DNA of 64,000 bases from an uncultured Gammaproteobacteria bacterium (GTDB lineage Bacteria; Pseudomonadota; Gammaproteobacteria; Pseudomonadales; Porticoccaceae): contig CAMTUJ010000016.1 in assembly GCA_947084925.1 (NCBI GenBank), forward strand, positions 3,226-67,225, in the 5' to 3' direction. The translations under genes and the position numbers were made by a program. Below the pieces are notes generated by a model, which saw only the letters and a list, made by a program, of their open reading frames with translations, searched no databases and had not been told where the DNA came from. Shown here piece after piece: positions 1-19,841 of this stretch. The number at the start of each line of letters is the position of its first letter. Within the stretch, counting starts at the first letter, position 1.

Positions 1-321
1 GGGCGCCAATACCTGCTCATCAAGTGCCTCGCCTTCAGGAGTCAATAGCGTATTTTTCCGGCCTTTGCGCCGGACAAATGTGAGATCATGCCCATCGGCT
101 GTTCGCAAAAACCCGTGGATACGGAGCTTATCATTGGCATGAAGAAAGTTATCGAGGGTACGTTCGTCGATACCGTAAAGCAGAGCTTTTAAACCCCGCA
201 AAGCCGAACTTTTCCCCGCTTCATTAGGCCCGTAGACGATATGCAGGCCCACCTCGTCAAAAGCCAATACCCGATCGGTAAAGGGCCCGAAAGCGGCAAG
301 ATTCAATTCCTGAATCCTCAT
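1..321 (-). CDS. SbcC/YhaN-like AAA (SMC-type) ATPase, N-terminal 107 codons only; gene continues beyond the left edge
   Basis: Minus-strand translation from the ATG at 321 reads MRIQELNLAAFGPFTDRVLAFDEVGLHIVYGPNEAGKSSALRGLKALLYGIDE..., with Walker A GPNEAGKS. The ATG overlaps the stop of the upstream SbcD-like gene (ATGA at 318-321). This ORF is not on the supplied track because it is truncated. Confidence 0.7.
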   Translation of the reverse strand, partial: MRIQELNLAAFGPFTDRVLAFDEVGLHIVYGPNEAGKSSALRGLKALLYGIDERTLDNFLHANDKLRIHGFLRTADGHDLTFVRRKGRKNTLLTPEGEALDEQVLAP

Positions 322-1580
322 GACCCTTTCTCCGTGAATAACAAGCGGTTAACGAGTAGGCCTTTGATATCCTCCAGGGTATCTTTTAGTAATTCGGGAT
401 TGGTTGGATCAAAGGGATCATCGCCAATCAGCAGTTCGGGCGGAAGTTTCTGACGAAGAGCGGACATCTCATCGGCTAGTGCGTCCAAAGCCGAGGTATC
501 CAGCTCCATGTCGCGGATGGCACGCAACAGACCGCTTAATGCATCATCACGTTCAAGAACCTCATCAGCAGAGACGGGCGGCTTTGTCTTGATAGAAACC
601 TTCTCCAACCACATTCCTGCACCACCTAGACCCGTTGCCATGGCGCGATACTCCTGTATCCAGTGTTCACGCTCGGCATGCAGTCGAGAATGAGCACCAC
701 AAGCTCCTTTCAGTATCAGGCGCGCAGCGACAGGTCGCCCTTCAGCAGCGTCAAGCTCCCTTTGTAGTGCCTCCCGTACCCGTTCATAGGCATCGTCGAC
801 GGTCTCACTGCCTGTGACGTCCACCTCACAGATCGCCCACCGCAGCACATCGAGATCACGATGCTCGACTTGGATGACTTCGCCATCGTCAACACTCACC
901 AGGGTGCAACCCTTCGGTCCCGTCTCACGAATATGTCGACCCTGAATGTTGCCGGGAAACACAATCCACGGTTCCCGGCATACCTCTTCACGCTTGTGAA
1001 CATGCCCAAGTGCCCAGTATTGATATCCTTTCGAACGCAGCCCATCCACAGTGCAGGGGGCATAGGGCTCGTGCCCTGGCTTGCCGTCGAGACAGGTATG
1101 CAGGAGCCCGATATTGAACAGCTGGGGGTCTCCTGCCGGATAGCCCTGGGACAGATCATCCGTCACAGCCCGGCTGATAAAACCCTGGCCATGGATAGCA
1201 ACAGAGAGCTCCTCCACAAGGACCCTCTCAGGCGACCGGGTGGAAAACACGGTGACGTTATCAGGCAAGCGAAGATGCTTGGTGATCTGGCTCGCTGCAT
1301 CATGATTGCCAGCAATCATGAAGACACGGATATCCGCCTCACGCAGCCGTCCCATACGCTCACTGAAATAAAGGCCGGTGTTGTAATCCTTCCAGTCCCC
1401 GTCATAGAGATCACCGGCCAGGAGCACAAAGTCCACCTCCTCATCGATGGCAAGTTCCACAAGGTTGTCAAAGGCACGGCGGGTGGCGCTGCGGATCTCG
1501 TCCACAGGGGCACCCTCGTATCGCTCCAACCCGTGCAGAGCGCTGTCGAGGTGGATATCTGCGGCGTGTATGAATTTCAC
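318..1580 (-). CDS. SbcD/Mre11-family metallophosphoesterase nuclease (YhaO-like)
   Basis: 420-aa ORF with a GTG start preceded by AAGGA. Calcineurin-like phosphoesterase motifs appear in order: IHAADIHLD, LLAGDLYDG, MIAGNHD, LGHVH. Confidence 0.8.
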   Translation of the reverse strand: MKFIHAADIHLDSALHGLERYEGAPVDEIRSATRRAFDNLVELAIDEEVDFVLLAGDLYDGDWKDYNTGLYFSERMGRLREADIRVFMIAGNHDAASQITKHLRLPDNVTVFSTRSPERVLVEELSVAIHGQGFISRAVTDDLSQGYPAGDPQLFNIGLLHTCLDGKPGHEPYAPCTVDGLRSKGYQYWALGHVHKREEVCREPWIVFPGNIQGRHIRETGPKGCTLVSVDDGEVIQVEHRDLDVLRWAICEVDVTGSETVDDAYERVREALQRELDAAEGRPVAARLILKGACGAHSRLHAEREHWIQEYRAMATGLGGAGMWLEKVSIKTKPPVSADEVLERDDALSGLLRAIRDMELDTSALDALADEMSALRQKLPPELLIGDDPFDPTNPELLKDTLEDIKGLLVNRLLFTEKGS

Positions 1581-1630
1581 GAATCCGTCCTTATCAGTGA
1601 TCTCGCCTTTATTTCAATACTATTTTCCAC

Positions 1631-3739
1631 TCATTTTTCAGATGAGGCGGCTGTCGCACCCTCACACAATGCTAAATCGCGCAACCGCCAACCAACTGCC
1701 TCCAAGGAAGCTTTCTGTTCAGGGGTAATGTGATTCGCATGCACAGCAAGACACAACAGGTGCTTAGGTCTGCTCATGGCCACATAGAGCTGACGCATGA
1801 ACTTTTTGTTAGGTTTAAAGGCTGCGCTATGATGAGGATTATCTCTCAATTTCACATTTGGGCGCTCCTGATTAGGGAGATCCCCTGTTAGATAAGGCAG
1901 CATCGTCTCAAGATCGAAGCAATGATACTTGGTTTCAAGAACAAGGATAGCGTCGTGCGTCTCCCCCTTCACACCATGAATTGTCGATAATTCAACCCGA
2001 AAACCGTCCGGATGTCGGATAATATTCTCCGGCAATGTAGTTAGTGCACTTTCTTTAGGTTCCCCTATATTTTGCTCAGCCCCTGCAACCTCTATCTCAT
2101 CGTGATACGTCATGTATTCGGATGCCTCAGCGGAAAGATTATTAAGATTAAAAATTGCTAACAAAACCCGGATTGCATCATCCCAGAATTCCTGATCTAT
2201 TTGATAGTCTTCGCCTAACATCATGCAGATCAATTCTCTATAGCAATCCCATTTGTCAGTGGCCCTTAATAATTCCCGCATGGACGTGGCACTAAAGTAG
2301 CGTCCTTCCTCGTCTTTTTTTTCTGCCTTTCTCAGGAGCCTTAAAATGCAATCTGTCAGCAGCTTGTAGTTGGCTGACCAGTCGACCGACGGTGACTGGC
2401 GACAGTAGTGCACTGCTTCGATAAACGCACTTTCCTTGAATTTGTTTTTTGCCTTCGACTTGTCGTACCCCGTCCAGTAATGGCCAATCTTCAACTCGTG
2501 CTTCTCAGGATCAATCTCATTTCCAACGGCCCCAACGACCTTTATGGAGAATTTATCCGATCGTTTATGCATCTCAGAAAACTGACATGAAACAATATCG
2601 GTAAATTCCGGAATTACGTTTCCCTTAGTTTCATCACGGTAAATGATGACAGTGTGCTCGAAATTCTGTCCATTGGCGTGAATCTGCGTTCTTTCCCTCA
2701 AACTATCCTCGGAAAGTTCTGTCTCTAAAAAAATTGCGTTGAAACTTACTCCCCGGATTTTTTTCCCGATTTTGTCATCAAATCGATGAGATTTATTGAT
2801 GACAAAATCCATATCTTCAACTAATTTCCCGTTGTAGCTTGAATTTGGGTCCTCCCCACCAACACCATGGAAAATCGCCTGATCTGGGTCACCATATCGT
2901 TGGACTATCAATTTTGGTTCGGCGAGTGGAAATATTTTCAGAAGCAAGTCGTCCTGGTATTTTTGCGTATCTTGCATCTCGTCAAGAAACACGTAGGGGA
3001 ACCGCTCTGCAACCAATATTCCCAAACTTGCGTTTTCAGAATATACCGTCTGCGCGTGGGTATACATATCTCTAAAAAGATAAATGCCATGCTCATCGAG
3101 GTATTGCTTTAACCGGGCCAGGGCTGCGTGGGCTTTCTGGAGGTTCGCATTCTTTTTCCATGCCTTGGGTACTTTATTTATATTTATATCCGTTCCATTG
3201 TTTGTGCTTAAACGAAATGTATCTCTTAGAAATGCATCTATGTTCTCCGGCGCACCAAGCCCATTGAGTGTGCCACGAAGCCACGCAAACTGGCCATTAT
3301 TCAGAAGCGTGCGGGCAACTTTAACGTATTCATCATTATCGACCGTAATGTTTTTGATACCCTTTGATCGCAGATACGGGATCGCAAGAAAACGGTTCAC
3401 AAACTCCTGGATTGTTCCAATAAAATGTGGATAGGAAAGAAGACGTTGCGCTTCGATCGTTTTTGATCGTTCAATGCGACCAATAATTTCATCCTTCGCG
3501 ACATTTGTATGTGAGAGGACGCAAATACCTTGGCACTGAAATGGCCATTTTTTAGCGAGCAGAATAAGCTTTGTCGCTATCAAGGTCGTTTTTCCGCTAC
3601 CGGGGCAAGCCTGTACGTCAATTGATCCCATAGACTCAAGAACAGATATTCTGTTTTCATCATTGAGAATCAAATCTTCGCTCGCCGCAATATCGGCAAT
3701 ATCCTGCTTGGTTATTAATCCATCAAGCGGGTCCAGCAT
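1631..3739 (-). CDS. UvrD/Rep/PcrA-family SF1 helicase, GajB-like (702 aa)
   Basis: Motif I is CPGSGKTTLIA, motif II VFLDEMQDTQ and motif III YGDPDQAIF. TIHGVKGETHDAILV and YVAMSRPKHLL are also present. The ATG at 3739 overlaps the upstream OLD-like gene by 17 nt. Confidence 0.8.
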   Translation of the reverse strand: MLDPLDGLITKQDIADIAASEDLILNDENRISVLESMGSIDVQACPGSGKTTLIATKLILLAKKWPFQCQGICVLSHTNVAKDEIIGRIERSKTIEAQRLLSYPHFIGTIQEFVNRFLAIPYLRSKGIKNITVDNDEYVKVARTLLNNGQFAWLRGTLNGLGAPENIDAFLRDTFRLSTNNGTDININKVPKAWKKNANLQKAHAALARLKQYLDEHGIYLFRDMYTHAQTVYSENASLGILVAERFPYVFLDEMQDTQKYQDDLLLKIFPLAEPKLIVQRYGDPDQAIFHGVGGEDPNSSYNGKLVEDMDFVINKSHRFDDKIGKKIRGVSFNAIFLETELSEDSLRERTQIHANGQNFEHTVIIYRDETKGNVIPEFTDIVSCQFSEMHKRSDKFSIKVVGAVGNEIDPEKHELKIGHYWTGYDKSKAKNKFKESAFIEAVHYCRQSPSVDWSANYKLLTDCILRLLRKAEKKDEEGRYFSATSMRELLRATDKWDCYRELICMMLGEDYQIDQEFWDDAIRVLLAIFNLNNLSAEASEYMTYHDEIEVAGAEQNIGEPKESALTTLPENIIRHPDGFRVELSTIHGVKGETHDAILVLETKYHCFDLETMLPYLTGDLPNQERPNVKLRDNPHHSAAFKPNKKFMRQLYVAMSRPKHLLCLAVHANHITPEQKASLEAVGWRLRDLALCEGATAASSEK

Positions 3740-5701
3740 TCCTTACTCCCTCCGCGTTCTGGACGTCTCCAACAATCGGTGCTGTGACATATTCTATAGC
3801 TTCAACAATATAGGGTGGCAGTTTTCCTTTAAGTGCTATGGCAAAAGCAAGATTAGCGGAATTGGTAGCTTTCTTGCGAGCATCCCGATCTTTCTGATCC
3901 TCATCAGAGAGTGCTTCTATATTGCCTCTAACCAAATCTTTTAGCTGATCGGCTAGTATTCTCGACAAGTCGTACGCAAAGTCTGTCTTGGATACTTTGC
4001 TCTGGATATAGGTTGCCTTCTCATTATCATCACCAACAATTCCTTCAATTCCCTCTCTAGACCCCTGAATAGCCTCATAACATTCTCCAAAAAGGCCATA
4101 CTTCGACAAACAAAACTCGAAAGTCCAATCGTCTGAAATCTTCACACATACGTTTTGCCGACTCAAACCATCAATCAGTTCGTCTTTCCGTTGTTGCTCG
4201 TTAGTACAGTTCCTTCTCCAATACCGCTGATTTCGGCCATTCTGCTTCTTGAAGCCATATTGGTTGCTACCATCATCCTTCTCCTCGACACAATCAGGCC
4301 AAAGGTCAAGGTCACGTAGGACACAGACCCTCGTTGAGGGGTACGTCCCCGAGTCTCGACGGAGAAAGAGCTTTGCGAACCGCTTCCACGACCCACTGTT
4401 GTCATACTTAATGATTGAAACGCCATAATTTTCCAGTGGTCTGCCAAGAAGCCTAGCAATTTCCGGAAGCAGAATATTTTCAGCGTCTCCTTCCACTAAG
4501 ACAATTCCTTTTGCGAAAAATATGTTCACCTTTGTCGCATCGAGAAACTTTCGGAGATACACATAATCATCGCCATCCAATTCCGTCTCTTCCGGCTTGA
4601 AGGGCCACGCCCTGCTGTCATTCAACATGATGACTTCCGAGGGATCTGCCTTGGACGACAAATTCGGACTGTGCGTCGTAAGGATACATTGAATGCCTTC
4701 TGGATTTTCGTCAGATTTCATTTTTGAGTTAATGAATTGCAAAAGCTTCATTTGGAGCTGCGGATGAAGGTGCGCCTCTGGCTCCTCTATGAGAAGAAGT
4801 GGAAACTCTTTTTCCACTTCTTGCTCTAACAAGAGAAGTTCTGCTGCCATAAATAATAAATTATGATAGCCAAGTCCGTGCAATTTTCGATCTTCGGTAA
4901 GCGCCAAGCTTAGCCCCTCAAGGACTGTTCGAAGATGACGACGCTTCGTGTTCTCAGGAAGAGTTTCCAGTCCTTTGGTGGTCACCCCGGCAATATCGAT
5001 GAACACGCCAAGTTTTTCTTTGTCCACTTCAAAAATGAGATCGTGAAGATATTTATCTTGAATATTTTTCGCTGATTTTTTGAGCGCAGCATCATCAGCT
5101 AATAGTTGCTCGTTCGCCTTAGCTATGATCATTAGAATGTCGTTAGCTTCATCACGAATTCCCTTTGATGAATTTAATATTTGAGACAGCCTCGAAGCAC
5201 GTCCGGACGAAAGTTCGGTTTCAGAATCTCTAAGAGGTTTTAGATATGTTGTCGCCAGGAAGTCACGAATTTCTGTTTCAACGGGAAGACCATTCCCATC
5301 TTTCCCAGAGCGGATTTCCGTTTGAATATACGGATATCCCCGACGTTCCTTTCCGGTCTTTTTCGCTGTCAACTGAACATATAAAACAGGCCTGCGCTTT
5401 CCCCCCCCTGACTATCAATGTATTCCTCATGAGAAAGATGTTCTACAAATCGGTAGGCATGTCTATCAACATCAGAAAATTTCAACTGGATAGAAAGCTC
5501 ACTGGCATCGTCATGAAAATCGGATTCCATTACATACGACCGCTCGGACGAATTGGTACCGAGCGTATATCTAATTGCGTCAACAAGAGCAGTCTTACCC
5601 GAGTCGTTTTCACCCACCAATACGTTCAGACCTCGATTTAGAGTAAAATCCAGTTCTTTAAATAGCCTAAATCCTATAATCGTAACCCTATCCAAATACA
5701 A
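3723..5701 (-). pseudogene. OLD-family ATPase + TOPRIM nuclease, GajA-like, split into 110-aa and 549-aa ORFs by a frameshift inside a G8 tract (5401-5408)
   Basis: The N-terminal ORF (5369-5701, TTG start with GGAGG 9 nt upstream) carries Walker A GENDSGKTALVDAI. The C-terminal ORF (3723-5372) carries LLLIEEPEAHLHPQ (Walker B/ABC-like), TOPRIM VLVEGDAENILLPE and VLRDLDLW. Reading through the G-run with one extra G gives ...IDSQGGGKRRPVLYVQLTAKKTGKERRGYPY..., a continuous protein of about 659 aa. Confidence 0.8.
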
Positions 5702-5757
5702 GGCCTAACCCTCCGAATTCATTACATACCAGCCTCACTCAAAGCTGATCAGCGAGG

Positions 5758-8700
5758 TCATATCGCTGCACCGCCCCTGCCAACAATCTCCATCAGCTTC
5801 CCATAGCTGGTCACCACGTCATACTTCACGTGTTCTGGATCAATCCTGCGGTTGATCTCCTCAAAGAATTTTCTGGCGCATTCTATTTTCGTATGCTCGA
5901 TGGCGCGCAGCTCCATGGTGGACATGGAACCTTTGGTCTCAGCCACAAAGTAGATGTGCTTGACTGTACCTTCCTTGAAGGAAATGGCCCAGTCCGGGTT
6001 GTAATCACCAACAGGGGTGGGGATCAGGAAGCCGCGGGGCAGTTTTGCGTAAACCACGACCTCGGCGCTGGCATCCAACTCTTTGACGAACTCACGCTCG
6101 ACCTTTGAATCGGTAATCACGTAGTCGTAAATGTGGTTCCTGAGCTTCTCGCTGGCTTTGGTGAAGTCCTGGCTACTCTGCCCTGCGGTGAAGATATCAA
6201 TATCGTGAGTCTCTGCGACACCGTCATAGGTCAGTCGCTCGATGATGATGGTTGCCTTTTGCTCGTTGATCAGGCGAGTCGCCTCTGCCAGAAAATGTTC
6301 CGGGTTCTGCTTGAACTGTTTGAATGTGGCCGGCTGTATACCGCTCATCATTTCAGCGATGGTTTTTCTGGTAAGTTGAGTGCTGTCGGACAACTTTCCC
6401 AGCAAATCATACCTGACGGTCGAGTGAATCGAGGCTTTGTATTCTTCCGTAGCGTTCTCCCGAAGTTCAAACCCCTGGCCAGCCTTGACCTGGTCGTACG
6501 TTGCCTCGCCGACCTGCTCGCCACCCTGGATGGTATATAGCAGTGGAGTCACCCTCAATTCTTTATCCAGCACTCGAATACTGTTGCGAATGAGCTCATT
6601 TGAATCGAACTCCACCCGATATACCGCCTTCCGGTTTATACGGTTCCAGAGTTCCTTGAATTCCCTCTTCTCGAAGTTGGCGTTCAGCGGATTGGTCTTG
6701 GGTTTACGGTCATCGCCCACATTGGGCAACTGAGATTCACTGAATACGCTGTCGATCAACCCGAAGATATGCTCAGCATGAGGGGCAAGTTCGGGAGGTA
6801 AAGCCGCCAGAGTGCCATTGGCTTTGGCGGCATGATAGGTCTCAGCAACCTGATCCACGTCATCCGTGTAGTCGTTTTTCAGCAGATATTTGTAAATCTG
6901 CTTGGCCATGACCGGGGTAATTTCCAGCGTCCCGGTTTCGGTCGATATTACCTTCCCAGTGAAATAGGCCTCATCGGCTTTTCGCGGTCGTGCCGACAGG
7001 GCGTCACTGATCTCGCGTTGCAGGTTGGCCACGAAATCTTTATAGCTCTCACTGGCGACGACGGTCAGTACGTTAATGTCATGCACCGTGGCTGCGTGGT
7101 CCATACGGTCACCGTGCTGATTGACGGACAATCTTAGACCACGTCCCACCTCTTGCCGGCGCGAAATCGTGTTGTCACTGTGCTTGAGCATACACATAAC
7201 GAAAACATTGGGATTGTCCCAACCTTCGCGCAGGGCCGAATGCGAGAAGATGAAGCGGACGGGCTCCTCGAAGGAAAGCAGCCGCTCCTTGTCTTTCAGG
7301 ATCAGATCGTAGGCATCGACATCATCCGAGAGCCCCGCTTCCTCTCCACGGATTTTGAAACTGGGATCAGTGAGCTTCTTGGTTTTCTTATCAATCGAGA
7401 AATAACCATTGTGTGTGCGACCAACGGGTATTTCGGCCAGATGCTTACGATAGGCCTCATTATCGAGCGCCAGTTCCCCCAGGTATTCGGCCTTGAGCTG
7501 CTCGTACTCTTCTTCAAAGATGCGGCCATATTCACCTTGTTCATCGGGCTGACTGTAGTCCCGGTACTTGACCACTTCGTCGATGAAGAAGAGCGATAGG
7601 ACTTTGATACCCTGAGCAAAGAGCCTTTTCTCCTTTTCCAGATGCGCCCTGATAGCTTCGCGGATCTGGATTCTCCGCATGGTCGCTTCGGTCACATCAC
7701 CAGTCGCATCCCCGGCCGTCAACACCTGACCATTGGTAAACTCCACCGTGTCTTTGTTGGCGTCGATCTGGGCGATGACGAAACCGCGATACTGGTCAAG
7801 TTCGTTTGACTCGACAAAGAGGTCCTTGCCTTTTTCCAGACGCTTCACGATGCGCTTGATGCCGTTGCCCTGGCGCACTTCCATCTCGATGCGGGCGACC
7901 GGCGCTTTCTTGGAAATCTCGATGGATTCCAGATAGAGATAGGCATTGGTCCCGGCTAGGCCTTTCACGGCGATGCCGCGCACCGCAATCTTCTTCACCA
8001 GCTTCTGGTTATAGGCGTCCAGGGCATCGAGACGATGAATTTTGTTGTGGGTGGTGCGATGCGTGGCCGAGTAGCGCAGGATCATCAACGGCTTGAACTT
8101 GGATAGCGCCTCCAGTGTCTTTGCCCCTTCCATTTTCTGCGGCTCATCCAGAATCACGATGGGGCGGTTACTGCTGATCACGTCGATGGGCCGGCGCGAC
8201 TGGAAGTCGTCCAGTTCATCATAGATGCGCCGATTATCCTTGCCGGTGGCATTAAACGCCTGGATATTGATGACCATGACGTTGATGCCCGCATCCGACG
8301 AAAAGCTCTCCAGGTGATGTAGCTGTTTGGAGTTGTAGATAAAAAAGCGGGCCTTCTTCCCATAGCTTTCGGTGAAATGTTCAGCGGTAATATCCAGGGA
8401 CTTGAACACCCCTTCACGGATGGCAATGCTGGGCACCACGATGATGAACTTGCTCCAGCCGTAGCGCTTGTTCATCTCGAAGATGCTTTTGATGTAGCAG
8501 TAGGTCTTGCCGGTACCGGTTTCCATTTCGATATCGAGGTTGACCTTGCACCCTGCGCTGGTCACCAGCGTGTCTGACAGCGGCAGATTCTGCCGCCGCT
8601 GGACGGCATGGATATTCTCGATAAGTTGAGTATCGGTCAGTTGTATATCGGCATTTTTAAAACCCGTATCGGTCTCTACCGTACTGCCGATGGTTTTACC

Positions 8701-8826
8701 CTTGACCACCCGGCCAGGATCAATCCGATACGCAATACCGGAAGTGTTGACCTGCCCGGCGAAGCAGTCAACGACGGACTCAACGGCGCTGGTCTGATAG
8801 GGCTGGACCTTGAACTTCAGCTTCAT
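5758..8826 (-). CDS. res: Type III restriction enzyme Res subunit (SF2 helicase + C-terminal PD-(D/E)xK nuclease)
   Basis: 1022 aa. Helicase motifs are [11 protein letters not shown] (I), VILDEPQKM (II) and [10 protein letters not shown] (VI). The C-terminal YNPDWAISF...IYFVAETKG fits PD...ExK. It lies 11 nt downstream of mod, the canonical mod-then-res order. Confidence 0.85.
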
Positions 8827-8837
8827 GCCATGCCCCC

Positions 8838-10910
8838 CTAAATGGACTTCACGTCGGTGCCCGGAGACATCTGTTTGAATATCTGCTCGACGTTGATCTT
8901 GACAGCATCGGACACAAAGCCGTTGTCACGGAAAACGACACGCAGCGGCTCGAAGCCGGCCAGTTCCTTGACCAGCTCTTCGTTTACACCGGTATCGAAG
9001 CAAGCCACCAGTGCGTTTTCATCTACAAAAAACACTGATTTTCCCTGGAGGATTTCTTTGCGGATAGGCAGCGACAGGTCGACACCCCAATCCAGCAACA
9101 CCTGGAAGAGTAGGTCTTCTGGCTTGCGGTCCGGCTTGATATTGTCAACAAAGGCATCGACCTGGGTCTGGTCGATGGTATCCGGCGTGTAATAGACGTC
9201 TGTCATATTCGATGAGTCAATTTTTAGCACGCGAAAGCCTATATCCTTGTTCCAGGCCTCATGGCATTCGCCTCCAAGAATTGCTTTCCCTGCACGGCGG
9301 ATACGTTCCTTTGTTATACCAGCAATATTTAACGGAATTCCTTCCCTTTTACAAAGCCCAATAACTGATTCATATTTTTTGCTCTTCTCATCGATACCCT
9401 CATCAAGTTGGACAGCGATGAAACAACGAGACCCTCCATCTTTGGCGTTTGCCTGCATGACTGCGTGAGGAAATGAGCCGGAGCCTGCAAAGAAATCCAT
9501 GAAAACTCCTTCCCCATACTTATATAGATCAATGCACGTTCGTAAAAGGCTCACTGGCTTCTTCCCATCTGGGAACGGTATACCTCCTTCTTTACCAACG
9601 TTGTTGTAGTCAAAGTTGTCCCAGAATGTTCCAAGCTTTTCCTTCTTAATTATCTGATCACCACTGGCATCTGCGACATCGTGTAGCCAGATCACTCGGC
9701 GAACTGTAGGACTGATATATGTATGTGTTACTTTTTCACCTTTATCCCGACCCGAACGCGGAACGTATTCAACTTCAATAATTTCACCGTCGTCCAGCCC
9801 TCCTACCGCGTCGATCACTCGGGTGCGAATGCTGGTCTGTGCATTTGTATCCGAGAAGATCTGCTTGAAATATTTCTTATAGGCTTCAGACTCACCGATA
9901 CCTTCATCCCGGCATACCTTGCTGATCGTTGTCCGTTTAACGCCTTTTCGCTTGTATATTTCTATATCATTACCATCGCCATCTTTTACTTTGCCAAAGT
10001 ATGTTCTTTCATCTGCTCCCAAAATGATGCTCGTGTACTTCCAGCTTTCTCCAGCTTCACGCATCTCATTGATTACATCAACTAAAGGCCGCTCTGTGTA
10101 CAGGTGCGCCAATGTATTGAATGCCTCAAGCGACTTTGCGAATATTACAATGTATTCGATATTTTTCTTTAGGCGCTTGTCCTCTCCACCTCCAGATGCA
10201 CCAGCAGACACCTTTGCCATCACACTGATGGTGTTGATGTAGTTCTGCTCGCCGAACACCTCATTCCCAAGTGCCGTAATATTCTTCAGCTCTGTATCGC
10301 TTATTGACATACAGATTGCACCGTCATCTGCAAGAAGGTTTCTTGCAAGGCGTAATCGGGAATACATCATCGAAAGCCAATCTGAATGAAATCGCCCGTT
10401 GGCCTCTGTATTCGCAATCAGCCTATTCCCTTTCTCATCTTTTTGATTTGACCTTTTCAGAAATTCCTCTGCGCTCTCCGCAAAGTCATCTTCGTAGATA
10501 AAATCATTCCCCGTATTATACGGTGGGTCGATATAGATCATCTTGACCTTACCGAGGTAAGTCTCCTGAAGGAGTTTCAGAGCCTCCAGATTATCGCCTT
10601 CGATGAGCAGATTTTGGGTGGTCTCAAAATCTACGCTCTCTTCCCGGCAAGGACGCAGGGTCTTGGCGATGGGCGCGTTGGCGGTGAGCAGCGCCTCCCG
10701 CTTGCCAGGCCAGTTGAGGTGATAGCGTTCCTGTGGACCCTCCACGATGGACTCGGACAACTCCTGCCGCAACTGATCAAAGTCCACTGCCAGCTTCAGT
10801 TGACCATCTTCGTCCTGGGCTTCAGTCACGCAGCCGGGAAACAGATCGCGGATGCGGGCGATATTCTCTTGGGTCAGGTTCGGCGAGTGTAATTTCATTT
10901 TTTCCATCAT
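8838..10910 (-). CDS. mod: Type III Mod subunit, N6-adenine (beta-class) DNA methyltransferase
   Basis: 690 aa. Motif [15 protein letters not shown] precedes motif [12 protein letters not shown], the beta-class order typical of Type III Mod. A long variable middle region is consistent with a target-recognition domain. Confidence 0.85.
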
Positions 10911-10919
10911 GATCGTCCT

Positions 10920-11618
10920 TTACTGTGCGACTGCTGACCCACTTACAGGAAGGTGGCGGGTCAGCGTTTCAATTTCTTGTTTTAAGGCGCGAAGCTCGGC
11001 GTTGATCGCCACTTTGCGATTGAATTGTTTTTCCTTGCGCAGGCGAGCTTCGCATTTGTCCAGCTCACGCTGTCTGGAATGTATTTGCTCCATTCTTTCC
11101 ACACAGCCCTGCAAGTCTTCGCCTGGGTGGGCCGGGAAGGGCATCAAGGGCGCCAGCAGGCGCGCATACAATGCCTCAAGATCAAACACCACCGGCAAAG
11201 CGGTTCGAGGTGCCACGCTTGGCAGCCAGGCGCTTTCAAAGTAGTCGCTCACCACCCATTTGGATCTGTCCGCATCGCTGGGGCGCTTGAAGGCCGCGGC
11301 GGCGCGGATCTTTCCCTCGTACCGCTGCTCAAAGAGGATCGGATAAGGGATAGCCCGGTCAATGCACTGCAGTACATCGTATTTCAGTTCTCCCGTTTTG
11401 AGGGTTATGCTGAAAATCTGGATTTCAGGAACGGACTGCGTTCCCTTGAGGTTGACGGTTTCCGGGGCAAGCTTGAATTGCCAAGTGATCTGTTCCACTT
11501 GGCGGACAAACAGATTTTTGACGGCAGCGCTCGGGCTTGCATGTTCGTAAATTTTGTTCTTGGGCAGCACGCGCCCGAAGGCGGCGCTCTTTGGGTAGTC
11601 GAAGAGCACGGCTGTCAT
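10920..11618 (-). CDS. DUF4391-family protein (function unknown)
   Basis: 232 aa. MTAVLFDYPKSAAFGRVLPKNKIYEH...LAPETVNL...IPYPILFE... matches my recollection of DUF4391 proteins. The C-terminal part (RMEQIHSRQRELDKCEARLRKEKQFNRKVAINAELRALKQEIETL) looks like a coiled coil. The start overlaps the SNF2 gene stop by 4 nt. Confidence 0.7.
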   Translation of the reverse strand: MTAVLFDYPKSAAFGRVLPKNKIYEHASPSAAVKNLFVRQVEQITWQFKLAPETVNLKGTQSVPEIQIFSITLKTGELKYDVLQCIDRAIPYPILFEQRYEGKIRAAAAFKRPSDADRSKWVVSDYFESAWLPSVAPRTALPVVFDLEALYARLLAPLMPFPAHPGEDLQGCVERMEQIHSRQRELDKCEARLRKEKQFNRKVAINAELRALKQEIETLTRHLPVSGSAVAQ

Positions 11619-14600
11619 CCCTCCTCCTGACCACTTTCTTGAACAACCAGAAAGGCGACGAGCTCGAAGTCATCCAGCCCGGCGATGGTGTTCACCAGAG
11701 CCGTGGTCTTGCCGCCGGAGAACAGGCTGTCGAGATCCTTTTCCTCTTTGATGTCGATCATCGAGCGAATAGCGGTACTGAGCAGGTCGGAGCAGGCTTT
11801 CATGTCACGACCCTCATCAGTCAGCTGATTGAACAAGCGACATACGGACTGAATGGGTTCTATCTGCCCCTTGCAACTGGAACGTACCAGGTCGAGCAAT
11901 GATTTGACCTCGGTGTGGTTGGCGATAACCTGCCCATCGCCTGCGATATAGATCAAATAGTAGGGATGCAGCCGATTCTGCTGGTTGATGTTGACGCCAT
12001 GGTTGAGGTTGCGCAGTGCGAAGATGACGCCGGGGTGCAATCCCACTTCAGGCCTGGAGGGAACAACCGCATGCATGCCATTGGGCACGTTTGCGAGATC
12101 GCCATTGGTTTTGACATAGTTCAGCAGGTCCATGCGAAAGTCGTTCAGGCCAAGATCAGTGATGGACACACCTGTCTTAAGGTCTTCCAGTTCGATCACC
12201 TCTTCCTGCAGGCGCCGGAGTTGTTCTTTCCGGTAGGATATATCGCTGCTTTTGGCCGTGAGGACGTTGTCGTCGCCGGTGGCCGTCACGTCGGCAATCA
12301 CCATGCGGTTTTCAACCCGTTCTTTTAGGTTGATGTATTCATCGAGCGAGATATCGGGCCAATAGTTGACCAACTGGATGGTTTTGTTGATGGAGCCGAT
12401 GCGGTCGATACGGCCGAAGCGCTGGATGATGCGGACCGGGTTCCAGTGAATGTCGTAGTTGACCAGGAAGTCGCAATCCTGAAGGTTCTGGCCTTCGGAG
12501 ATACAGTCAGTGCCGATCAGCAGATCCAGTTCGGCCGGTTCGTTTGGCAGCACCTGCGCCTTCTCCTTGGCGCGAGGTGAAAACAGCGTCAGCAATGACT
12601 GGAAATCATAGGTTTTCTTCGGTGTCGCGCCTTTTAATGTGGACTGGGTTATTGTGGACTGGGGCGCATCCTTGCCGGTGACCTTACCTGTGTGCAGCCC
12701 CTTTGTTGCCAGAATATCTTCGGCAAGGTTGTTGTACAGGTAATTGGCCGTGTCGGCAAAAGCAGTGAAGATCAGGATCTTTTTATTGCCGTCATTGATG
12801 GGATTTTCAATCTTGTCCAGGATAAGAGCCTTGAGATGCTGTAACTTGGCATCATCCTCGGGCGTGACTTTTGCCATGGAGTCCAGCAAGGCGTTTATGA
12901 CTTCCAGATCAACCTTCAGGTCATGTTCCCATGAGGGTAGATCCATATCAGCGAGATTGATTTTAACCTTGCCGCCGATTTCATCGTCGGCCACCCCGCC
13001 GTTACCAGCAAGGACATCATCATCCTCTGCTTCGAGGGTTTCCAGGCTATCCGTCCAGTCAGAAACGCTTTCCGCGTTGCCTGTAACCTTGTACGAATCG
13101 ATCTTGCTCAAGGTACGGGTGTGGTTGTCTAACAGGCTTTGCAGGGTGAGGCGGAAGGCCTCAACCGAGCTTTCAAGACGCTTGAGCAGATTGGTCGTCA
13201 TCAGTGCCTGCAAGCTCCGTTCGCGGTCTGCCTGCCTGAGCTTTCCTTTACCGCCTTCCACCTGCGTGTCGTACAAGTCTTCATACTTTCTAAGACGACT
13301 GGGCAGGATGTAGCTGATCGGGGCATAAACAGAGAGCTTGAGCAGCGAGAGCTGTTCAAAAATCTCATTGAAGCTCATGACATCCGTGCGCCCGGTCAGT
13401 GGCGAATGGAATGACAGAGGCTTGCGCCGCTCTGGAAACTGCCCTATGTCGCTGGTGTCGTAGAAGGTCTGGATATGCTTGCGCGAACGGGCGATGGTGA
13501 CGCTGTCGAGCAGCTCAAAGAAGTCGAAATCGAGTGCATCCAGGATAACCCGCGCGGTACGATCTTCCGGCGGCAATTTTGACCATTGGTTGAACACCGT
13601 TTGGGCATTGCGAAAGATTTCTTCCACCGATCTGCCGGTGCGCAGCTTCTTGCTGAGATTTTCCGAGTCGCCTTCGTAAGCCAGGGCGAGCTGGTTGCGC
13701 AGATCATTGAAGCGGTTGTTGACCGGGGTGGCAGACAGCATGAGAACCTTGGTTTTAACACCCTGGCGGACGACCTGGTTCATCAGCTTCTGATAACGGG
13801 TTTCCCGGTCCTTGACCGCATCGTTGTTGCGGAAGTTATGCGATTCATCAATGACCACCAGATCATAGTTCCCCCAGTTAACACGGTTCAGGGGAATGCC
13901 AAACGACTCGCCCGAGGTGCGGGAAAGGTCGGTGTGACATAGAACGTCATAATTGAACCGATCCCTGGAGAAGATGTTTGTTGTCAGGTTTCTGTTGTAA
14001 TTCAGCCAGTTGTCTGCAAGCTTCTTGGGGCACAGAACAAGTACCGAACGATTCCGCAGTTCGTAATACTTCACAACGGCAAGAGCCGTAAAGGTTTTGC
14101 CAAGCCCCACACTGTCGGCCAGGATGCAGCCGTTGTAGGTTTCCAGCTTGTTGATAATGCCTACGGCGGCATCGCGCTGGAAATTAAAAAGCTTGTTCCA
14201 GACCAGCGTATCCTGATAGCCCGTGCGGTCGTTGGGCAACACGTCCTCGTCGATATCGTCGAGGAAGTCGCTGAAAATGTTGTAGAGCATCAGGAAATAG
14301 ATGCGCTCGGGCGAATTTTCCTGGTATGCCGACTCGATATGATCACAGATTGCGGCCGTCACATCTTCTAGCTTGCCGGGGTCGCTCCAGATTTGGTCAA
14401 AAAGCTGAAGGTATGTGGATGTAAAGGCCGTCTCATCAACACGGTTGACGATATTGGAAACAGCGTCCCCTTGCTGATATCCCAGATCCACCGCGGTGAA
14501 ACCATGCAGGGGCATGTACGCTACTTCCTGCTCGGGGCCTTGGACACAAGCAAACTGCTGCATTGGAGACTTGGTCTTGTTAGAACGGAATTTAGCCTTA

Positions 14601-14941
14601 CGCCGCATCCACTCCGCACATTCGCGTGCGATGGCACGCTGGGTGAGTTTGTTGCGAAGCTGGATCTCAAATTCGGAGCCGTACAGGCTGCGTTCGCGGT
14701 TGGCCTTGGGGATGAAAAACTCTCGACGTTCCTTGCTAAATTTGTCGGTGACTGCATTCGGGACGAAGGTGGGTGCAGTGAAAATGAATTCCAACGAATC
14801 AATCTTTGAGAGCTCGGCCTTTAAGGCTTCATAGGCATAGATTGAAAAACACGATGCCGCGATCTTCAGTTTGGCCTTGGGGTTGATGGAAGCCTTCAGA
14901 TCGTCGCCCAGCAAAGAATTGATGTTGTCGATAATTTTCAT
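11615..14941 (-). CDS. SNF2-family (SF2) helicase/ATPase with an extra non-helicase N-terminal domain of about 260 aa
   Basis: 1108 aa. Motifs are ILADSVGLGKTFTALAV (I), LVVIDESHNFRN (II, DExH), LMLSATPVNN (III) and QRFGRIDRIGS (VI). No HxK (PLD) or PD-ExK motif was recognised in the N-terminal domain. Confidence 0.8.
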   Translation of the reverse strand: MKIIDNINSLLGDDLKASINPKAKLKIAASCFSIYAYEALKAELSKIDSLEFIFTAPTFVPNAVTDKFSKERREFFIPKANRERSLYGSEFEIQLRNKLTQRAIARECAEWMRRKAKFRSNKTKSPMQQFACVQGPEQEVAYMPLHGFTAVDLGYQQGDAVSNIVNRVDETAFTSTYLQLFDQIWSDPGKLEDVTAAICDHIESAYQENSPERIYFLMLYNIFSDFLDDIDEDVLPNDRTGYQDTLVWNKLFNFQRDAAVGIINKLETYNGCILADSVGLGKTFTALAVVKYYELRNRSVLVLCPKKLADNWLNYNRNLTTNIFSRDRFNYDVLCHTDLSRTSGESFGIPLNRVNWGNYDLVVIDESHNFRNNDAVKDRETRYQKLMNQVVRQGVKTKVLMLSATPVNNRFNDLRNQLALAYEGDSENLSKKLRTGRSVEEIFRNAQTVFNQWSKLPPEDRTARVILDALDFDFFELLDSVTIARSRKHIQTFYDTSDIGQFPERRKPLSFHSPLTGRTDVMSFNEIFEQLSLLKLSVYAPISYILPSRLRKYEDLYDTQVEGGKGKLRQADRERSLQALMTTNLLKRLESSVEAFRLTLQSLLDNHTRTLSKIDSYKVTGNAESVSDWTDSLETLEAEDDDVLAGNGGVADDEIGGKVKINLADMDLPSWEHDLKVDLEVINALLDSMAKVTPEDDAKLQHLKALILDKIENPINDGNKKILIFTAFADTANYLYNNLAEDILATKGLHTGKVTGKDAPQSTITQSTLKGATPKKTYDFQSLLTLFSPRAKEKAQVLPNEPAELDLLIGTDCISEGQNLQDCDFLVNYDIHWNPVRIIQRFGRIDRIGSINKTIQLVNYWPDISLDEYINLKERVENRMVIADVTATGDDNVLTAKSSDISYRKEQLRRLQEEVIELEDLKTGVSITDLGLNDFRMDLLNYVKTNGDLANVPNGMHAVVPSRPEVGLHPGVIFALRNLNHGVNINQQNRLHPYYLIYIAGDGQVIANHTEVKSLLDLVRSSCKGQIEPIQSVCRLFNQLTDEGRDMKACSDLLSTAIRSMIDIKEEKDLDSLFSGGKTTALVNTIAGLDDFELVAFLVVQESGQEEG

Positions 14942-15147
14942 TTGCCAGAACCCTTTTCATTAGGTTCCGCAGCGCCGCCCGCTTCGACCCAGGCATCCAC
15001 CTGGTCTTTCTTGAACTTCCAAAGACGGCCTACCCGATGAGCCGGCATGGCATGTTTGTCAATCCAGCGGTACACCGTGTCATTACTGACACCGAGGTAC
15101 TTGCCTATCTCGTCTACTGATAACCAGCGGTCTTCCAAATCAGCCAT
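14938..15147 (-). CDS. Excisionase-family (MerR-like) helix-turn-helix DNA-binding protein, first gene of the operon
   Basis: 69 aa. WLSVDEIGKYLGVSNDTVYRWIDKHAMPAHRVGRLWKFKKDQVDAWV is the typical excisionase-family HTH signature. The stop overlaps the SNF2 start by 4 nt. Confidence 0.75.
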   Translation of the reverse strand: MADLEDRWLSVDEIGKYLGVSNDTVYRWIDKHAMPAHRVGRLWKFKKDQVDAWVEAGGAAEPNEKGSGK

Positions 15148-15600
15148 TTACGGCTCCTGACGGGCGATGGGGTTCCGCCCTTTGGCGGTGGCATTGGCTT
15201 ACAGGCAGAAAAGCCCTAGCTTGCGATGTGCCTCACTATAACTTGGCATTAGCAGGCTCTCAAGCAGTTTGGTCTGGATAAGGCCACATAAGACCGTTTA
15301 TGGTGGTCAAAACTGAGCCCGAAAGCATTGCTATTCGCAAACGGGGCGCTGCCGAATGTTGCCACAGTAGAATGCACAACAGTGATAACCGCTGGCTATC
15401 CGGTTACGAGAAGGAAGCTTAGGTGCGAATGGGCACTCTTCGTCCAGACAGCGCCCAATTCATGCTGAGCTGTTTTTTATTCGACACTCGACCGGTCGCA
15501 CACAGACCTATAGATATGGCTCACGACCCGCATTACTGGCCTGATCAAATGGACGCGGACACCTTGATGGTTTTCCTTGGGCATACGCAGAGTGGGATTC

Positions 15601-15960
15601 TCAGGGATCGTCGGGATCGCCCATATCAATCCGCCAGTCGTCCTTATCGTACAAACCGACACCTGAGTGACCGTCTCTGAGTTCAGGCTGTTTTTCTTCA
15701 TCCAGATCGGCGTTCCGTACAAGCCATGCCGCGATCAGTACGAATGCGAGCAGTATGGCCAGCCAGAACGTCACGTACAGCAGCACTGCGAACACGGCGA
15801 GCTTCACGATCCAGAACAGCGATCGTGATACACCTGCCGGCAAACCCTTGCCCGCCAACCATTGGGTTGCACGGGCCTCTTGCCGCACGAAGCCGCGCCA
15901 TGTGCGGCCGAGCCACCTGCCGGTGCGTTCTGCGGTTGTGGGATGTGCGGTATGTTTCAT
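15601..15960 (-). CDS. DUF3742-family small membrane protein (ICE backbone gene)
   Basis: 119 aa. AERTGRWLGRTWRGFVRQEARATQWL is followed by two hydrophobic helices (LFWIVKLAVFAVLLYVTFWLAILLAFVLIAAWLV). As I recall it, this pattern is typical of DUF3742 proteins of PFGI-1/ICEclc-type elements. Confidence 0.65.
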   Translation of the reverse strand: MKHTAHPTTAERTGRWLGRTWRGFVRQEARATQWLAGKGLPAGVSRSLFWIVKLAVFAVLLYVTFWLAILLAFVLIAAWLVRNADLDEEKQPELRDGHSGVGLYDKDDWRIDMGDPDDP

Positions 15961-15979
15961 AGTGCTATTTCATGATCAT

Positions 15980-16603
15980 CTATCGTTTTCTGGCACGCGG
16001 ACCGGGATCGAGTTCCACGCCGATCTGGTATTTCTCGACAAAGCCGGGCCAATCCACATGCTCGGGCAGATCGATGTCATCGACCACCTTGACCTTGCCC
16101 TGCGCCCGCTCGAACAACGCGATGCTGGCGGAGGGATAGTTGTTGCGCGACGGATAGAGCACCCCGTCGAACAGCGGCACGCTATCGGCATCCAGCATCG
16201 CATACACCTGAGCGGACACCTGCTGCGTGTGCGTGTAGTCACGGCTGGCCAATTGCTCCAGGGTCAGACCAAAGTAGCCTGCCATGACGCCTGCGGCCGT
16301 AAGGTCAGCCAACTGCAGATCGCCCACCACGCCGACCGCACGCACCAGGCGGCTTTGGACTTCAGCCAATGCAATCGAGCGTTTGCTGTCCCGATCCCAT
16401 TGGTGCTTGTGAAACACCGACTCCATCAACGCCGTGGGCAGATCGCGACCAACATAGAGCACACCATAGTTCTGGGCCGGGGCGTCATAGCGGTTCGTGC
16501 CGTCTCGACCGTAATACAGCGGCTCGCCCCGGTAGACGACCCGACTCACATGCTGAAGCAACTCACCCGTGTCGATGCGTTGCGTGGGAAGCGCGATGCC
16601 CAC
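15980..16603 (-). CDS. RES-domain toxin (NAD+-degrading toxin family, MbcT/ParT-like)
   Basis: 207 aa. It has an R...E...S arrangement (GRDGTNRYDAP..., LPTALMESVFH, VLYPSRNN). The GTG start lies 12 nt after the antitoxin stop, with GGAGGG as SD. Confidence 0.75.
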   Translation of the reverse strand: MGIALPTQRIDTGELLQHVSRVVYRGEPLYYGRDGTNRYDAPAQNYGVLYVGRDLPTALMESVFHKHQWDRDSKRSIALAEVQSRLVRAVGVVGDLQLADLTAAGVMAGYFGLTLEQLASRDYTHTQQVSAQVYAMLDADSVPLFDGVLYPSRNNYPSASIALFERAQGKVKVVDDIDLPEHVDWPGFVEKYQIGVELDPGPRARKR

Positions 16604-16615
16604 ACCGACCCTCCG

Positions 16616-17305
16616 TCAATGCACGCCGAGCACGTTGAAGACCGCCTTCGCCACGGCATCCACCGAATCGGCAGTCACTGCTTCCACTGGCGAACGCCCG
16701 GCCAATCCTTCGAGCGGTTCGGACAGGGCGCGATACAGCGTCCAGGCATCAACTTCGGACGCAGCCTGTAGCACGATTTGGGTCAGTCGCTGTTTCACCG
16801 GATCGAGTTGCCAGTCGGGCAGCCTCCGGCCACGCGGCCCCACGTTCAGCGCCAACAGTCGGCGCGCCTCGATGTCCTTGTAGATCTGCTGGCGCGACTT
16901 GTTCGCCAGCCGGGCAAAGTCAGGCAGAGGTAGGTTGTGCGACTGCTCGAAAGCCTCCAACAACACGGCACGACCGCGCTGAATTTCGGTCTCACCCGGT
17001 GTCCAGCGGGTATCGGCACGCACCGCTGCGGCCTTCCGGGCCAAGGTCTGCTCCACCGTCTCCACTTCGAGCGGGATTTCCATGGACAGCGGAAGTTCGA
17101 CCGACTCAAGGCGTTCCTGTACGAACGCTTCCAGTTCGGCTGCAAAGGCTTGGGCATCCCGAATCTCAACGGTATCGGAGAAACGGCGTACCTCGTCCAC
17201 CGTCACCCTTGGCAGGTGGTCGGCAATGAATTCCAGGGTCTTGGGCATGGATAGCTCCCGTTGACAGACTGAAATCAGCATATTCTCGTTTGTCTCCTGT
17301 GTCAA
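16616..17305 (-). CDS. Xre/MbcA/ParS-type antitoxin (C-terminal RES-toxin-binding domain, DUF2384-like)
   Basis: It sits directly upstream of the RES gene. The C-terminal ...LEGLAGRSPVEAVTADSVDAVAKAVFNVLGVH resembles the antitoxin toxin-binding domain. The start is uncertain: TTG at 17305, ATG at 17281 (AGGAGA 11 nt upstream) or ATG at 17248. Confidence 0.65.
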   Translation of the reverse strand: MTQETNENMLISVCQRELSMPKTLEFIADHLPRVTVDEVRRFSDTVEIRDAQAFAAELEAFVQERLESVELPLSMEIPLEVETVEQTLARKAAAVRADTRWTPGETEIQRGRAVLLEAFEQSHNLPLPDFARLANKSRQQIYKDIEARRLLALNVGPRGRRLPDWQLDPVKQRLTQIVLQAASEVDAWTLYRALSEPLEGLAGRSPVEAVTADSVDAVAKAVFNVLGVH

Positions 17306-19477: not shown

Positions 19478-19495
19478 GATATGACGCCGGCGCCC

Positions 19496-19801: not shown

Positions 19802-19841
19802 TGCCAAAAGCGTCGATCAGGGCCACGATATAAACCACGTT

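Follow-up and report, generated by a model that had tools for sequence, protein, structure and literature searches.

Introduction

Defence islands on integrative and conjugative elements (ICEs) are already known, and spread multi-layered phage resistance between species. Among the SXT/R391 ICEs, hotspot 5 is said, in work of LeGault et al. from 2021, to carry BREX, restriction-modification (R-M) and abortive infection (Abi) systems, and Luyten and Picton reportedly described, both in 2022, defence islands headed by the WYL-domain regulator BrxR. Here we analyse a stretch of 64 000 nucleotides (nt) from an uncultured gammaproteobacterium of the family Porticoccaceae (contig CAMTUJ010000016.1 of assembly GCA_947084925.1), termed the window in what follows. 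Its positions 1–15600 are probably the proximal 15.6 kb of a modular defence island, the cargo of an ICE hotspot, with an internal slot for cassette replacement, a Gabija system that is OFF in this copy and expression by read-through.

Like the SXT/R391 hotspots, the locus combines a conserved backbone with a fixed insertion point, here the stop codon of a DUF3742 gene, and with anti-phage cargo that differs between elements. Unlike them, it belongs to an ICE of the MobH/PFGI-1 class that lies beside trpE, and its cargo is one-directional, with an internal replaceable slot and a recurrent SbcD/ATPase gene pair at the 3′ side. As in the BrxR islands, a small DNA-binding protein heads the array, and several relatives (L057–L061, L145 and L150 among the related loci that we compared) are in fact headed by BrxR/WYL genes; the head gene here differs in encoding an excisionase-family helix-turn-helix (HTH) protein of 69 amino acids (aa), and in being co-directional and overlapping with the array rather than a divergent WYL gene. 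Integron cassettes offer an analogy only, as promoterless units in one orientation behind an upstream promoter, with sharp exchange boundaries; unlike integrons, the array has no adjacent integrase, attC-like sites or conserved junction motif.

Gene content and layout of the array

Gene identities were taken from Pfam, PADLOC and NCBIfam profile searches of the array proteins. The array consists of three modules (Table 1): a five-gene Type III R-M cassette, Gabija, and an SbcD-like nuclease with an AAA_27 ATPase. The minus strand carries every gene from 15147 to the window edge, and the junctions, taken in order from the HTH gene to the ATPase gene, measure −4, −4, +9, +11, +56, −17, +50 and −4 nt, four of them being overlaps. 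These measurements agree with a first-pass annotation of the same DNA, which had listed nine minus-strand genes, gaps of −17 to +56 nt and four overlapping junctions. That annotation had also described a 15-kb array; genes do run from 15147 to 1, but the last of them is cut by the window edge and encodes 1098–1169 aa in relatives, so that the array should measure at least ∼18.4 kb.

Table 1. Features of the array, its leader and the adjoining ICE and chromosome (positions in the window)
Feature	Position	Strand	Remarks
HTH gene	15147-14938	minus	first gene of array
SNF2-family helicase gene	14941-11615	minus	second gene
DUF4391 gene	11618-10920	minus	third gene
Type III mod	10910-8838	minus	fourth gene
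Type III res	8826-5758	minus	fifth gene
gajA	5701-3723	minus	sixth gene, frameshifted
gajB	3739-1631	minus	seventh gene
SbcD-like gene	1580-318	minus	eighth gene
AAA_27 ATPase gene	321-1	minus	ninth gene, truncated by window edge
Non-coding leader, 453 nt	15148..15600	minus	between DUF3742 and array; best sigma-70-like site; AGGAG ribosome-binding site before HTH start
DUF3742 gene	15960-15601	minus	ICE backbone; Pfam/NCBIfam
RES-domain toxin-like gene, 207 aa	16603-15980	minus	RES domain identified in L054 homologue
Partner of RES-like gene, 229 aa	17305-16616	minus	ICE backbone
MobH relaxase gene	17426-19477	plus	NF041494 365 bits (cut-off 200); TIGR03760 297 bits (cut-off 161)
Tyrosine integrase gene	21816-20548	minus	integrase-domain model PRK09692 239 bits
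trpE	21998-23809	minus	chromosome

The cargo site

The neighbouring element carries the MobH/PFGI-1-class relaxase and terminal tyrosine integrase of an ICE. Its Int–MobH–DUF3742 synteny is kept in >40 related loci from many genera, and backbone homology to related elements ends at 15603–15605, the DUF3742 stop codon; everything from 15600 downward is therefore cargo, the leader included. In 19 of the 33 related ICEs compared TraG_N follows DUF3742 directly, leaving the cargo site empty. Others hold at the same site BREX/Qat-like genes (L005, L009), a set of PglZ, SNF2 and methyltransferase genes (L037) or polyketide synthase/non-ribosomal peptide synthetase genes (L046), and the genes beyond the site in relatives encode TraG_N, TraC, TraU and DUF1525. 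Judged from these comparisons, the DUF3742 stop codon is a variable cargo hotspot. The first-pass annotation had proposed both that the array is ICE cargo and that the cargo site varies among related ICEs, and each proposal is borne out, the former by the relaxase, integrase and DUF3742 genes together with the end of backbone homology. Of the flanks, which it took as ICE backbone and chromosome, ICE backbone occupies 15601–21995 only, everything from 21998 on (trpE, rpe and so on) being chromosome.

The right end of the ICE falls at ∼21995, against the 3′ end of trpE. Homology to two relatives (L033 and L021) stops at 21995, and the integrase–trpE junction is common to five others (L005, L007, L010, L011 and L037). 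The 64-kb window contains no tRNA gene, and the ICE end does not lie at one.

The closest ICE relatives are L005 and L009 (10377–20356), the integrase being 100% identical in L005. Their cargo comprises genes for a KAP NTPase, a 289-aa open reading frame (ORF) without family match at the QatB position, a QueC-like protein, TatD, BrxL and PglZ. It runs opposite to the orientation of DUF3742, so that one-directionality with the backbone is no rule of the hotspot. The gene pair at 15980–17305 looks like a toxin–antitoxin pair of the RES–Xre type; in L005 and L006 the RES-like protein is 87–99% identical and its partner 90–92%.

Cassette replacement and the age of the stack

The locus L053 aligns with the window at 96.6% identity as far as 5778, which is 18 nt short of the res end, and once more from the second sbcD codon (1577) onward; in between, PDC-S46 and PDC-S73 (nSTAND3) genes replace Gabija. 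In L063 and L066 homology stops at 5780 and resumes at 1580, and these two loci and L062 have a 163-nt spacer only in this interval, while L078 has a PDC-S06 gene. Contigs of three public runs (X6, X29 and X30) part from the window at 5775–5777, where they have loose ends. We conclude from these alignments that the interval from the 3′ end of res (∼5778) to the sbcD start codon (∼1578) forms a sharply edged slot whose contents can be replaced.

The order Type III cassette–Gabija–SbcD/ATPase recurs in diverged loci. Identities to the window are 91% for Res, 92–95% for GajA, 83% for GajB and 83% for SbcD in L142–144, and 92–93, 88–94, 83 and 82%, respectively, in L147–149. A further locus, L150, carries a Gabija 76–80% identical to the one here, again after a Type III R-M system, an unrelated one.

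The guanine + cytosine (GC) content of the array genes is 51% for the ATPase gene, 56% for sbcD, 44% for gajB, 41–45% for gajA, 53% for res, 48% for mod, 55% for the DUF4391 gene and 53% for the SNF2 gene. The array range of 41–56% is far below the 66% of the remaining window, as first proposed. Two details of the earlier account need correction: the OLD/UvrD genes, put there at ∼40% GC, measure ∼44%, and in place of three compositional blocks the trinucleotide profiles give two classes, one formed by SbcD, Res, DUF4391 and SNF2 (mutually r = 0.75–0.87) and a distinct one by Gabija and the centre of Mod (r = 0.82). For ICE backbone against chromosome r is 0.93. Because the per-module GC pattern is alike in the diverged trio relatives (L142 and L147–149), the mosaic should be an inherited property of the gene families rather than a trace of recent stepwise acquisition, and the comparison indicates that the stack is old and was not recently assembled. 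The stepwise stacking proposed in the first-pass annotation therefore survives in part: the modules are exchangeable at sharp edges (L053, L062, L063 and L066), but the GC mosaic is no sign of recent stacking.

The stack would then have been built by cassette replacement between the 3′ end of res and the start of sbcD, the trio later spreading as a unit. Identity along the L142 alignment is ∼96% in gajA and 72–85% in sbcD, and such unevenness implies later recombination inside the trio unit. No attC-like or conserved junction motif was found at the module boundaries beyond the sbcD ribosome-binding site, and homologous recombination between res and sbcD, the conserved flanks, is the simpler explanation of module exchange.

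Gabija and its G tract

Gabija consists of a complex of GajA and GajB, in which a nuclease restrained by normal nucleotide levels is released when phage replication depletes nucleotides, and then cuts DNA. Here, as is typical of Gabija, the genes overlap, and both proteins match the PADLOC profiles end to end. GajB (702 aa) is a UvrD-like helicase encoded directly downstream of gajA, its start overlapping the gajA stop by 17 nt; residues 9–689 match PADLOC GajB PDLC00147 (E = 2e-170), Pfam finds UvrD-helicase, and both Walker A (CPGSGKT) and the motif DEMQD are present. GajA, with an OLD-family ABC ATPase and a TOPRIM nuclease, is by contrast split by a −1 frame change into an N-terminal ORF (5701–5369, 110 aa, with Walker A) and a C-terminal ORF (5372–3723, 549 aa). 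In PADLOC GajA PDLC00099 positions 1–101 correspond to the N-terminal ORF and 115–620 to the C-terminal ORF, in different frames, with E-values for the two pieces of 6e-138 and 9e-34; family membership is clear, yet this copy does not encode GajA as one polypeptide.

Three-frame translation places the frameshift at eight consecutive G of the coding strand (G8; plus-strand C8, 5401–5408), at gajA codons ∼97–99 (QGGGK). A homopolymer scan found this tract to be the sole G or C run of ≥7 in the 64-kb window. One added G yields a GajA of 659 aa, and a public full-length protein of that length (P0121) is ∼100% identical to the read-through of gajA. The remainder of gajA and the whole of gajB are intact, with no second lesion. 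Being out of frame at G8, gajA would leave Gabija OFF in this copy; the first-pass annotation had taken the OLD gene as intact, and any interplay of Gabija with the other modules that it envisaged would be off here as well.

Tract alleles were read from assembled contigs of 12 public runs, seven of which are otherwise identical to the window around the tract. The in-frame allele G9 occurs in six (X2, X4, X6, X9, X27 and X31), the out-of-frame G11 in two (X1 and X5) and the in-frame G7AG in three (X28, X29 and X30). The contigs of X3 and X9 break at the tract, a hint of mixed tract lengths within a sample. The GajA cluster at 90% identity has six members of 659 aa and a 549-aa fragment on two contigs. 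In diverged relatives the tract is interrupted (CAGGGGGCGCGAAAG in L142, CAGGGGGAGAAAAAG in L147), which makes the tract a lineage-specific slippage hotspot. An intra-ORF tract that sets the reading frame and is length-polymorphic among otherwise identical sequences is the mark of a phase-variable locus, and the alleles indicate that this tract is hypervariable.

On this evidence Gabija may be a contingency (phase-variable) gene, in which slippage would shift the tract length, G9 would restore the 659-aa protein, and the system would contribute nothing in this copy until slippage to G9; that the switch is reversible we infer. Another possibility, toward which we lean less, is that gajA is a decaying pseudogene or G8 an assembly error, the tract being an accidental slippage hotspot and no adaptive switch. 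The relatives L142 and L147 lack the tract, most public copies are in frame (the six full-length proteins against the one fragment), mononucleotide shuffling of the region produces a G or C run of ≥8 in 33% of cases, and the alleles come from contig consensus, not from reads. All this is compatible with decay or error. An adaptive switch is favoured by the occurrence of four alleles (G8, G9, G11 and G7AG) across the 12 runs, which stem from several studies, in mostly identical surroundings; by G11, which differs from the window by three bases in two runs, unlike a typical single-base homopolymer error; by the contig breaks, expected of mixed lengths; and by the intactness of the rest of gajA and all of gajB. 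The contigs are compatible with a selected ON/OFF switch, with gene decay and, in part, with assembly error.

The clade to which this Gabija belongs is found repeatedly between a Type III R-M system and the SbcD/ATPase pair. Exact-protein look-ups of GajB and of P0247 gave no match. A full-text literature search, judged by titles and abstracts, brought up no clear report of homopolymer-driven Gabija switching.

The SbcD-like/AAA_27 pair

Enzymes of the Mre11/Rad50 type degrade DNA ends and hairpins. The SbcD-like protein (420 aa) is an Mre11/SbcD-like metallophosphoesterase (Pfam Metallophos) with the motifs DIH, GDLYD, GNHD and GHVH all present, and it matches the Mre11 and SbcD chains in PDB with E = 1e-12 to 1e-4. 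The window holds the N-terminal 107 aa of the partner ATPase (Pfam AAA_27, E = 2e-42), whose start overlaps the sbcD stop (ATGA); full-length relatives of it occur in L053, L054 and L142. The pair thus resembles SbcCD and Mre11/Rad50 in its phosphoesterase motifs, in its PDB matches and in having an SMC-like ATPase partner of ∼1100 aa encoded by an overlapping gene. It differs from SbcCD in that the partner is an AAA_27 (YhaN-like) protein rather than a canonical SbcC, in that the SbcD-like protein scores below the NCBIfam cut-offs (55.5 bits against 77.65 for sbcd, TIGR00619, and 33.7 against 450 for PRK10966), and in residing in mobile defence islands, not at the chromosomal sbcCD locus. By these profiles the pair would work like an Mre11/Rad50-type nuclease yet is a separate family, and it is predicted to be an ATP-dependent DNA-end or hairpin nuclease.

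The SbcD-like protein has at least 8000 homologues at E ≤ 1e-20, the best 120 listed being 80–98% identical; hosts include Marinobacter, Alcanivorax, Porticoccus, SAR86, Thiodiazotropha and others. The pair is found directly 3′ of, and co-oriented with, ten or more different defence systems, its upstream neighbours including QatABCD, BrxL, PglZ, PDC-S06, PDC-S73, a NERD+UvrD candidate, an OLD/AriA-like gene, a Type III Res and Gabija. Its place in L054 and L055 is directly after the ICE gene DUF3742 and ahead of the TraG_N transfer genes. Azaca and metal-resistance genes occur among the genes 3′ of the pair, as does a pPIWI-associated nuclease with TraG_N after it.

Of 41 distinct contexts, 33 have a co-oriented gene 5′ of sbcD (binomial p = 6e-5; median gap 36 nt), and several of the eight non-co-oriented neighbours are short ORFs, probably miscalled. 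The gap to the gene before sbcD is often as small as −4 to +30 nt, the two genes adjoining or overlapping. Upstream similarity across contexts does not extend past the ribosome-binding site, ∼18 nt ahead of the start codon, and sbcD therefore appears to lack a conserved promoter region; the pair would depend on upstream transcription.

It is unlikely, in our estimate, that the pair serves DNA repair or maintenance of the element, for example in end or hairpin processing during transfer, and merely neighbours a defence hotspot. Such a role would suit the position between DUF3742 and TraG_N in L054 and L055, the unusually high and backbone-like conservation of the protein across many genera among the best 120 homologues listed, and the outcome of the PADLOC search, in which no defence family matched the pair apart from a weak LmuB similarity of the ATPase. 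The pair is, however, absent within 10 kb downstream of DUF3742 in 46 of 46 related genome ICE loci. In non-ICE contexts it has defence systems on both sides (in L061, PDC-S06 upstream and Azaca downstream), and in L057–L060 heavy-metal cargo, not transfer genes, lies downstream.

The modules may act in synergy, for instance through the degradation by SbcD/ATPase of ends made by the Type III enzyme or GajA. We regard as quite improbable the far-reaching version of this idea, in which the pair is a promoterless terminal module shared by, and read through from, the defence systems upstream, whose DNA ends or nicks it degrades, the array being a cassette-exchange platform and its Gabija the first known as a contingency locus. 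Nothing relevant on SbcCD-like anti-phage systems or AAA_27 emerged among the papers listed by full-text literature searches.

Expression of the array

One strand, short or overlapping junctions and terminator-free gaps are what the sequence of a single operon should present, and all three are found here. A scan for terminator-like sites returned 15, against 15.5 expected from shuffles; five lie on the minus strand, all of them intragenic, and none falls in an intergenic gap on the coding strand, in keeping with the first-pass description of the array as terminator-poor. The RNAs of the gaps fold no better than shuffles (z −0.5 to +0.8). The top sigma-70-like site of 16.5 kb (TTGAGA-17-TATAGT, 10/12 matches) lies at 15263–15235 on the coding strand, 88 nt 5′ of the HTH start codon. 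On the coding strand of the 56-nt and 50-nt inter-module gaps the scan detected no promoter-like site, and over the region such sites are fewer than in shuffles (8 against 14.7). Rfam gave no non-coding RNA match over positions 1–22500 at E ≤ 0.1.

Co-transcription of the array is thus plausible from its sequence, and transcription would proceed mainly from the 15263–15235 promoter by read-through of the terminator-free junctions. We find it doubtful that the modules are instead independent transcription units with their own promoters, located in the short gaps or within the 3′ end of the gene before, packed together by compaction of the cargo with no shared control or coupling. Each module does occur without the others, the Type III cassette alone on plasmids and sbcD/ATPase after many different systems or directly after DUF3742; three modules would be co-oriented by chance alone in about one case of four; and the wider gaps of the trio relatives (172–221 nt between gajB and sbcD, 141 nt between res and gajA) leave room for promoters. 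Independent units fit poorly with the two promoter-free gaps and the scarcity of promoter-like sites over the region, and equally with the tight sbcD junctions, the confinement of conserved upstream sequence to the ribosome-binding site, and the excess of co-oriented upstream neighbours. By the comparative data, then, co-orientation is not a matter of chance.

The leader and the Type III cassette

Type III R-M systems methylate one strand of an asymmetric site through Mod, and the Mod–Res complex cuts unmethylated, inversely oriented sites using ATP. The cassette here resembles EcoP15I-type systems in having mod followed by res, DPPY and FxGxG motifs and a variable Mod centre. It departs from classical Type III systems in adding a leading regulator, an SNF2 helicase (C3a139) and DUF4391, and from classical phase-variable Type III mod genes in that mod has no repeat tract in the homopolymer scan.

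Mod (690 aa) matches PADLOC MTase_III (E = 2e-204) and Pfam N6_N4_Mtase, with the catalytic motif DPPY and the AdoMet motif FAGSGS. Res (1022 aa) joins an SF2 ATPase to a C-terminal RE_endonuc nuclease (PADLOC REase_III, 1139 bits; Pfam ResIII and RE_endonuc), and scores 389 bits against NCBIfam PRK15483, under the cut-off of 564. A Mod with catalytic and AdoMet motifs followed by a Res with ATPase and endonuclease domains is the gene set of a Type III R-M system; Mod would methylate host DNA and Mod–Res cut DNA with unmethylated sites. The central region of Mod (∼9311–10320) has a GC content of 44–47%, shows no DNA homology in relatives and is missing in isolates X27 and X28. By this comparison it is a swapped, allele-specific target-recognition region, and related arrays therefore probably methylate other sites.

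The SNF2 helicase (1108 aa) matches the PADLOC candidate ‘HKD+Snf2’ (C3a139) end to end (E = 7e-128), and has the Pfam domains SNF2-rel_dom and Helicase_C with motifs DSVGLGKT and VIDESH; its N-terminal 250 aa contain no clear HxK motif. Its matches to the DrmD, BrxH and DpdE PADLOC profiles are partial only, and every NCBIfam match is far under cut-off (DrmD 144 bits against 610). We considered and rejected membership of DISARM or BREX, since the helicase is only partially similar to DrmD and BrxH, and DrmA, DrmB, PglZ and BrxC are absent from the array.

DUF4391 (232 aa; PF14335, E = 4e-64) is a conserved partner of SNF2 in the cassette, with 3803 homologues in Proteobacteria, Chlorobium, Desulfobacterales, Syntrophus. 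In an AlphaFold model built from 37 sequences (mean pLDDT 71.6) a long helical hairpin comes after an alpha/beta domain; a Foldseek search of the model against PDB found no significant match (best E = 0.04, TM < 0.25). In the full-text literature DUF4391 is mentioned rarely, and none of the mentions concerns the cassette by title.

The HTH protein, presumed to regulate the cassette, belongs to the excisionase family (MerR-like; TIGR01764 ‘excise’, 75 bits), and its stop codon overlaps the SNF2 start (ATGA). A homologue with 74% identity occupies the same position on a Methylotuvimicrobium plasmid. Its score against NCBIfam MAD1 is 75.1 bits, under the cut-off of 80. Membership of MADS was rejected, MAD1 being below cut-off and the only other match being that of the P-loop in the GajA N-terminus to MAD3 (25 bits against 420), with no other MAD family found.

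No homologue of the leader was found among the fetched loci. Read on the coding strand, it contains the sequence GCYAATGCCA twice, 55 nt apart (15253–15244 and 15198–15189), the first copy inside the promoter spacer and the second 45 nt downstream. The copies are possible operator sites, to which the HTH protein may bind. We also considered an invertible promoter, since a 24-nt inverted repeat (15108–15131/15388–15411, 19/24 complementary) brackets the promoter-like site and the first HTH codons. This was rejected: 5% of dinucleotide shuffles yield a repeat at least as good, and neither an inversion joint nor an adjacent invertase was found. The repeat is probably due to chance. At position 15496 the window has T where all four DNA runs compared have G; among them is X1, with no more than three other single-base differences over 16 kb. 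Either the window has a private variant here or its sequence is in error.

The gene order of the cassette recurs on plasmids, headed by an HTH gene in Methylotuvimicrobium, a WYL gene in Raoultella and a DUF262 gene in Aeromonas. A megablast search of plasmids with the array as query matched parts of the Type III cassette only, and neither Gabija nor sbcD. In L142, a Pseudomonadales metagenome-assembled genome, a ‘23S rRNA-intervening-sequence’ four-helix protein (2287–2646) lies between SNF2 and DUF4391, and a Fic protein (5541–6644) between Mod and Res. Inserts are also present on the Raoultella and Aeromonas plasmids (L145, L146): a gene for a 900-aa ATP-binding protein on both, and AAA+DUF4276 on L146. 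Judging by these loci, the cassette tolerates internal insertions. The 11-nt spacer between mod and res (8827–8837) holds a G6 run in the ribosome-binding region of res, TAGGGGGGCATGGCATG, and the allele of isolate X28, 95% identical, has one additional base in this spacer. By this comparison the run is a second, minor length-variable one.

Discussion

The reading that we find probable places the island in the hotspot of a MobH-relaxase (PFGI-1/ICEclc-like) ICE, where it would begin right after the DUF3742 stop codon, with the ICE inserted beside trpE. Several points weigh against this reading. The window does not reach the left end of the island. The promoter call at 15263–15235 is a consensus match only, and internal promoters may exist within upstream ORFs or in the 50-nt and 56-nt gaps. 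None of the RNA sequencing runs searched contains the array sequence. Three runs guessed to be RNA hold mostly 85–95% homologues of the array; their contigs, in which DNA carry-over is possible, span intra-module junctions only, DUF4391/Mod in X24 and X25 (100% identical) and SbcD/ATPase in X26, with Gabija uncovered. The tract lengths in gajA are those of contig consensus and may in part reflect homopolymer sequencing or assembly error, the G8 of the window included; and the lineage-specific tract may have arisen as a mutational hotspot by accident, with gene decay as the outcome, and not as a selected switch. Finally, the defence role of the SbcD/AAA_27 pair is suggested by its genomic association, with no match in the defence database searched.

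The array adds to the known ICE defence islands an example with mapped boundaries. Beyond that known type of island it offers leads in the hypervariable gajA tract, the bounded exchange slot and the recurrent promoterless SbcD/AAA_27 pair. A slot with precise edges, filled with varied immunity genes according to host, is a concrete model of how such islands are rebuilt. The SbcD/Rad50-like pair is a candidate for a new defence or accessory module, on which coupling between systems could be tested. Gabija can be costly to its host, and the G tract suggests that it may be switched on and off at the level of the population, by a mechanism so far tied mainly to restriction-modification genes.

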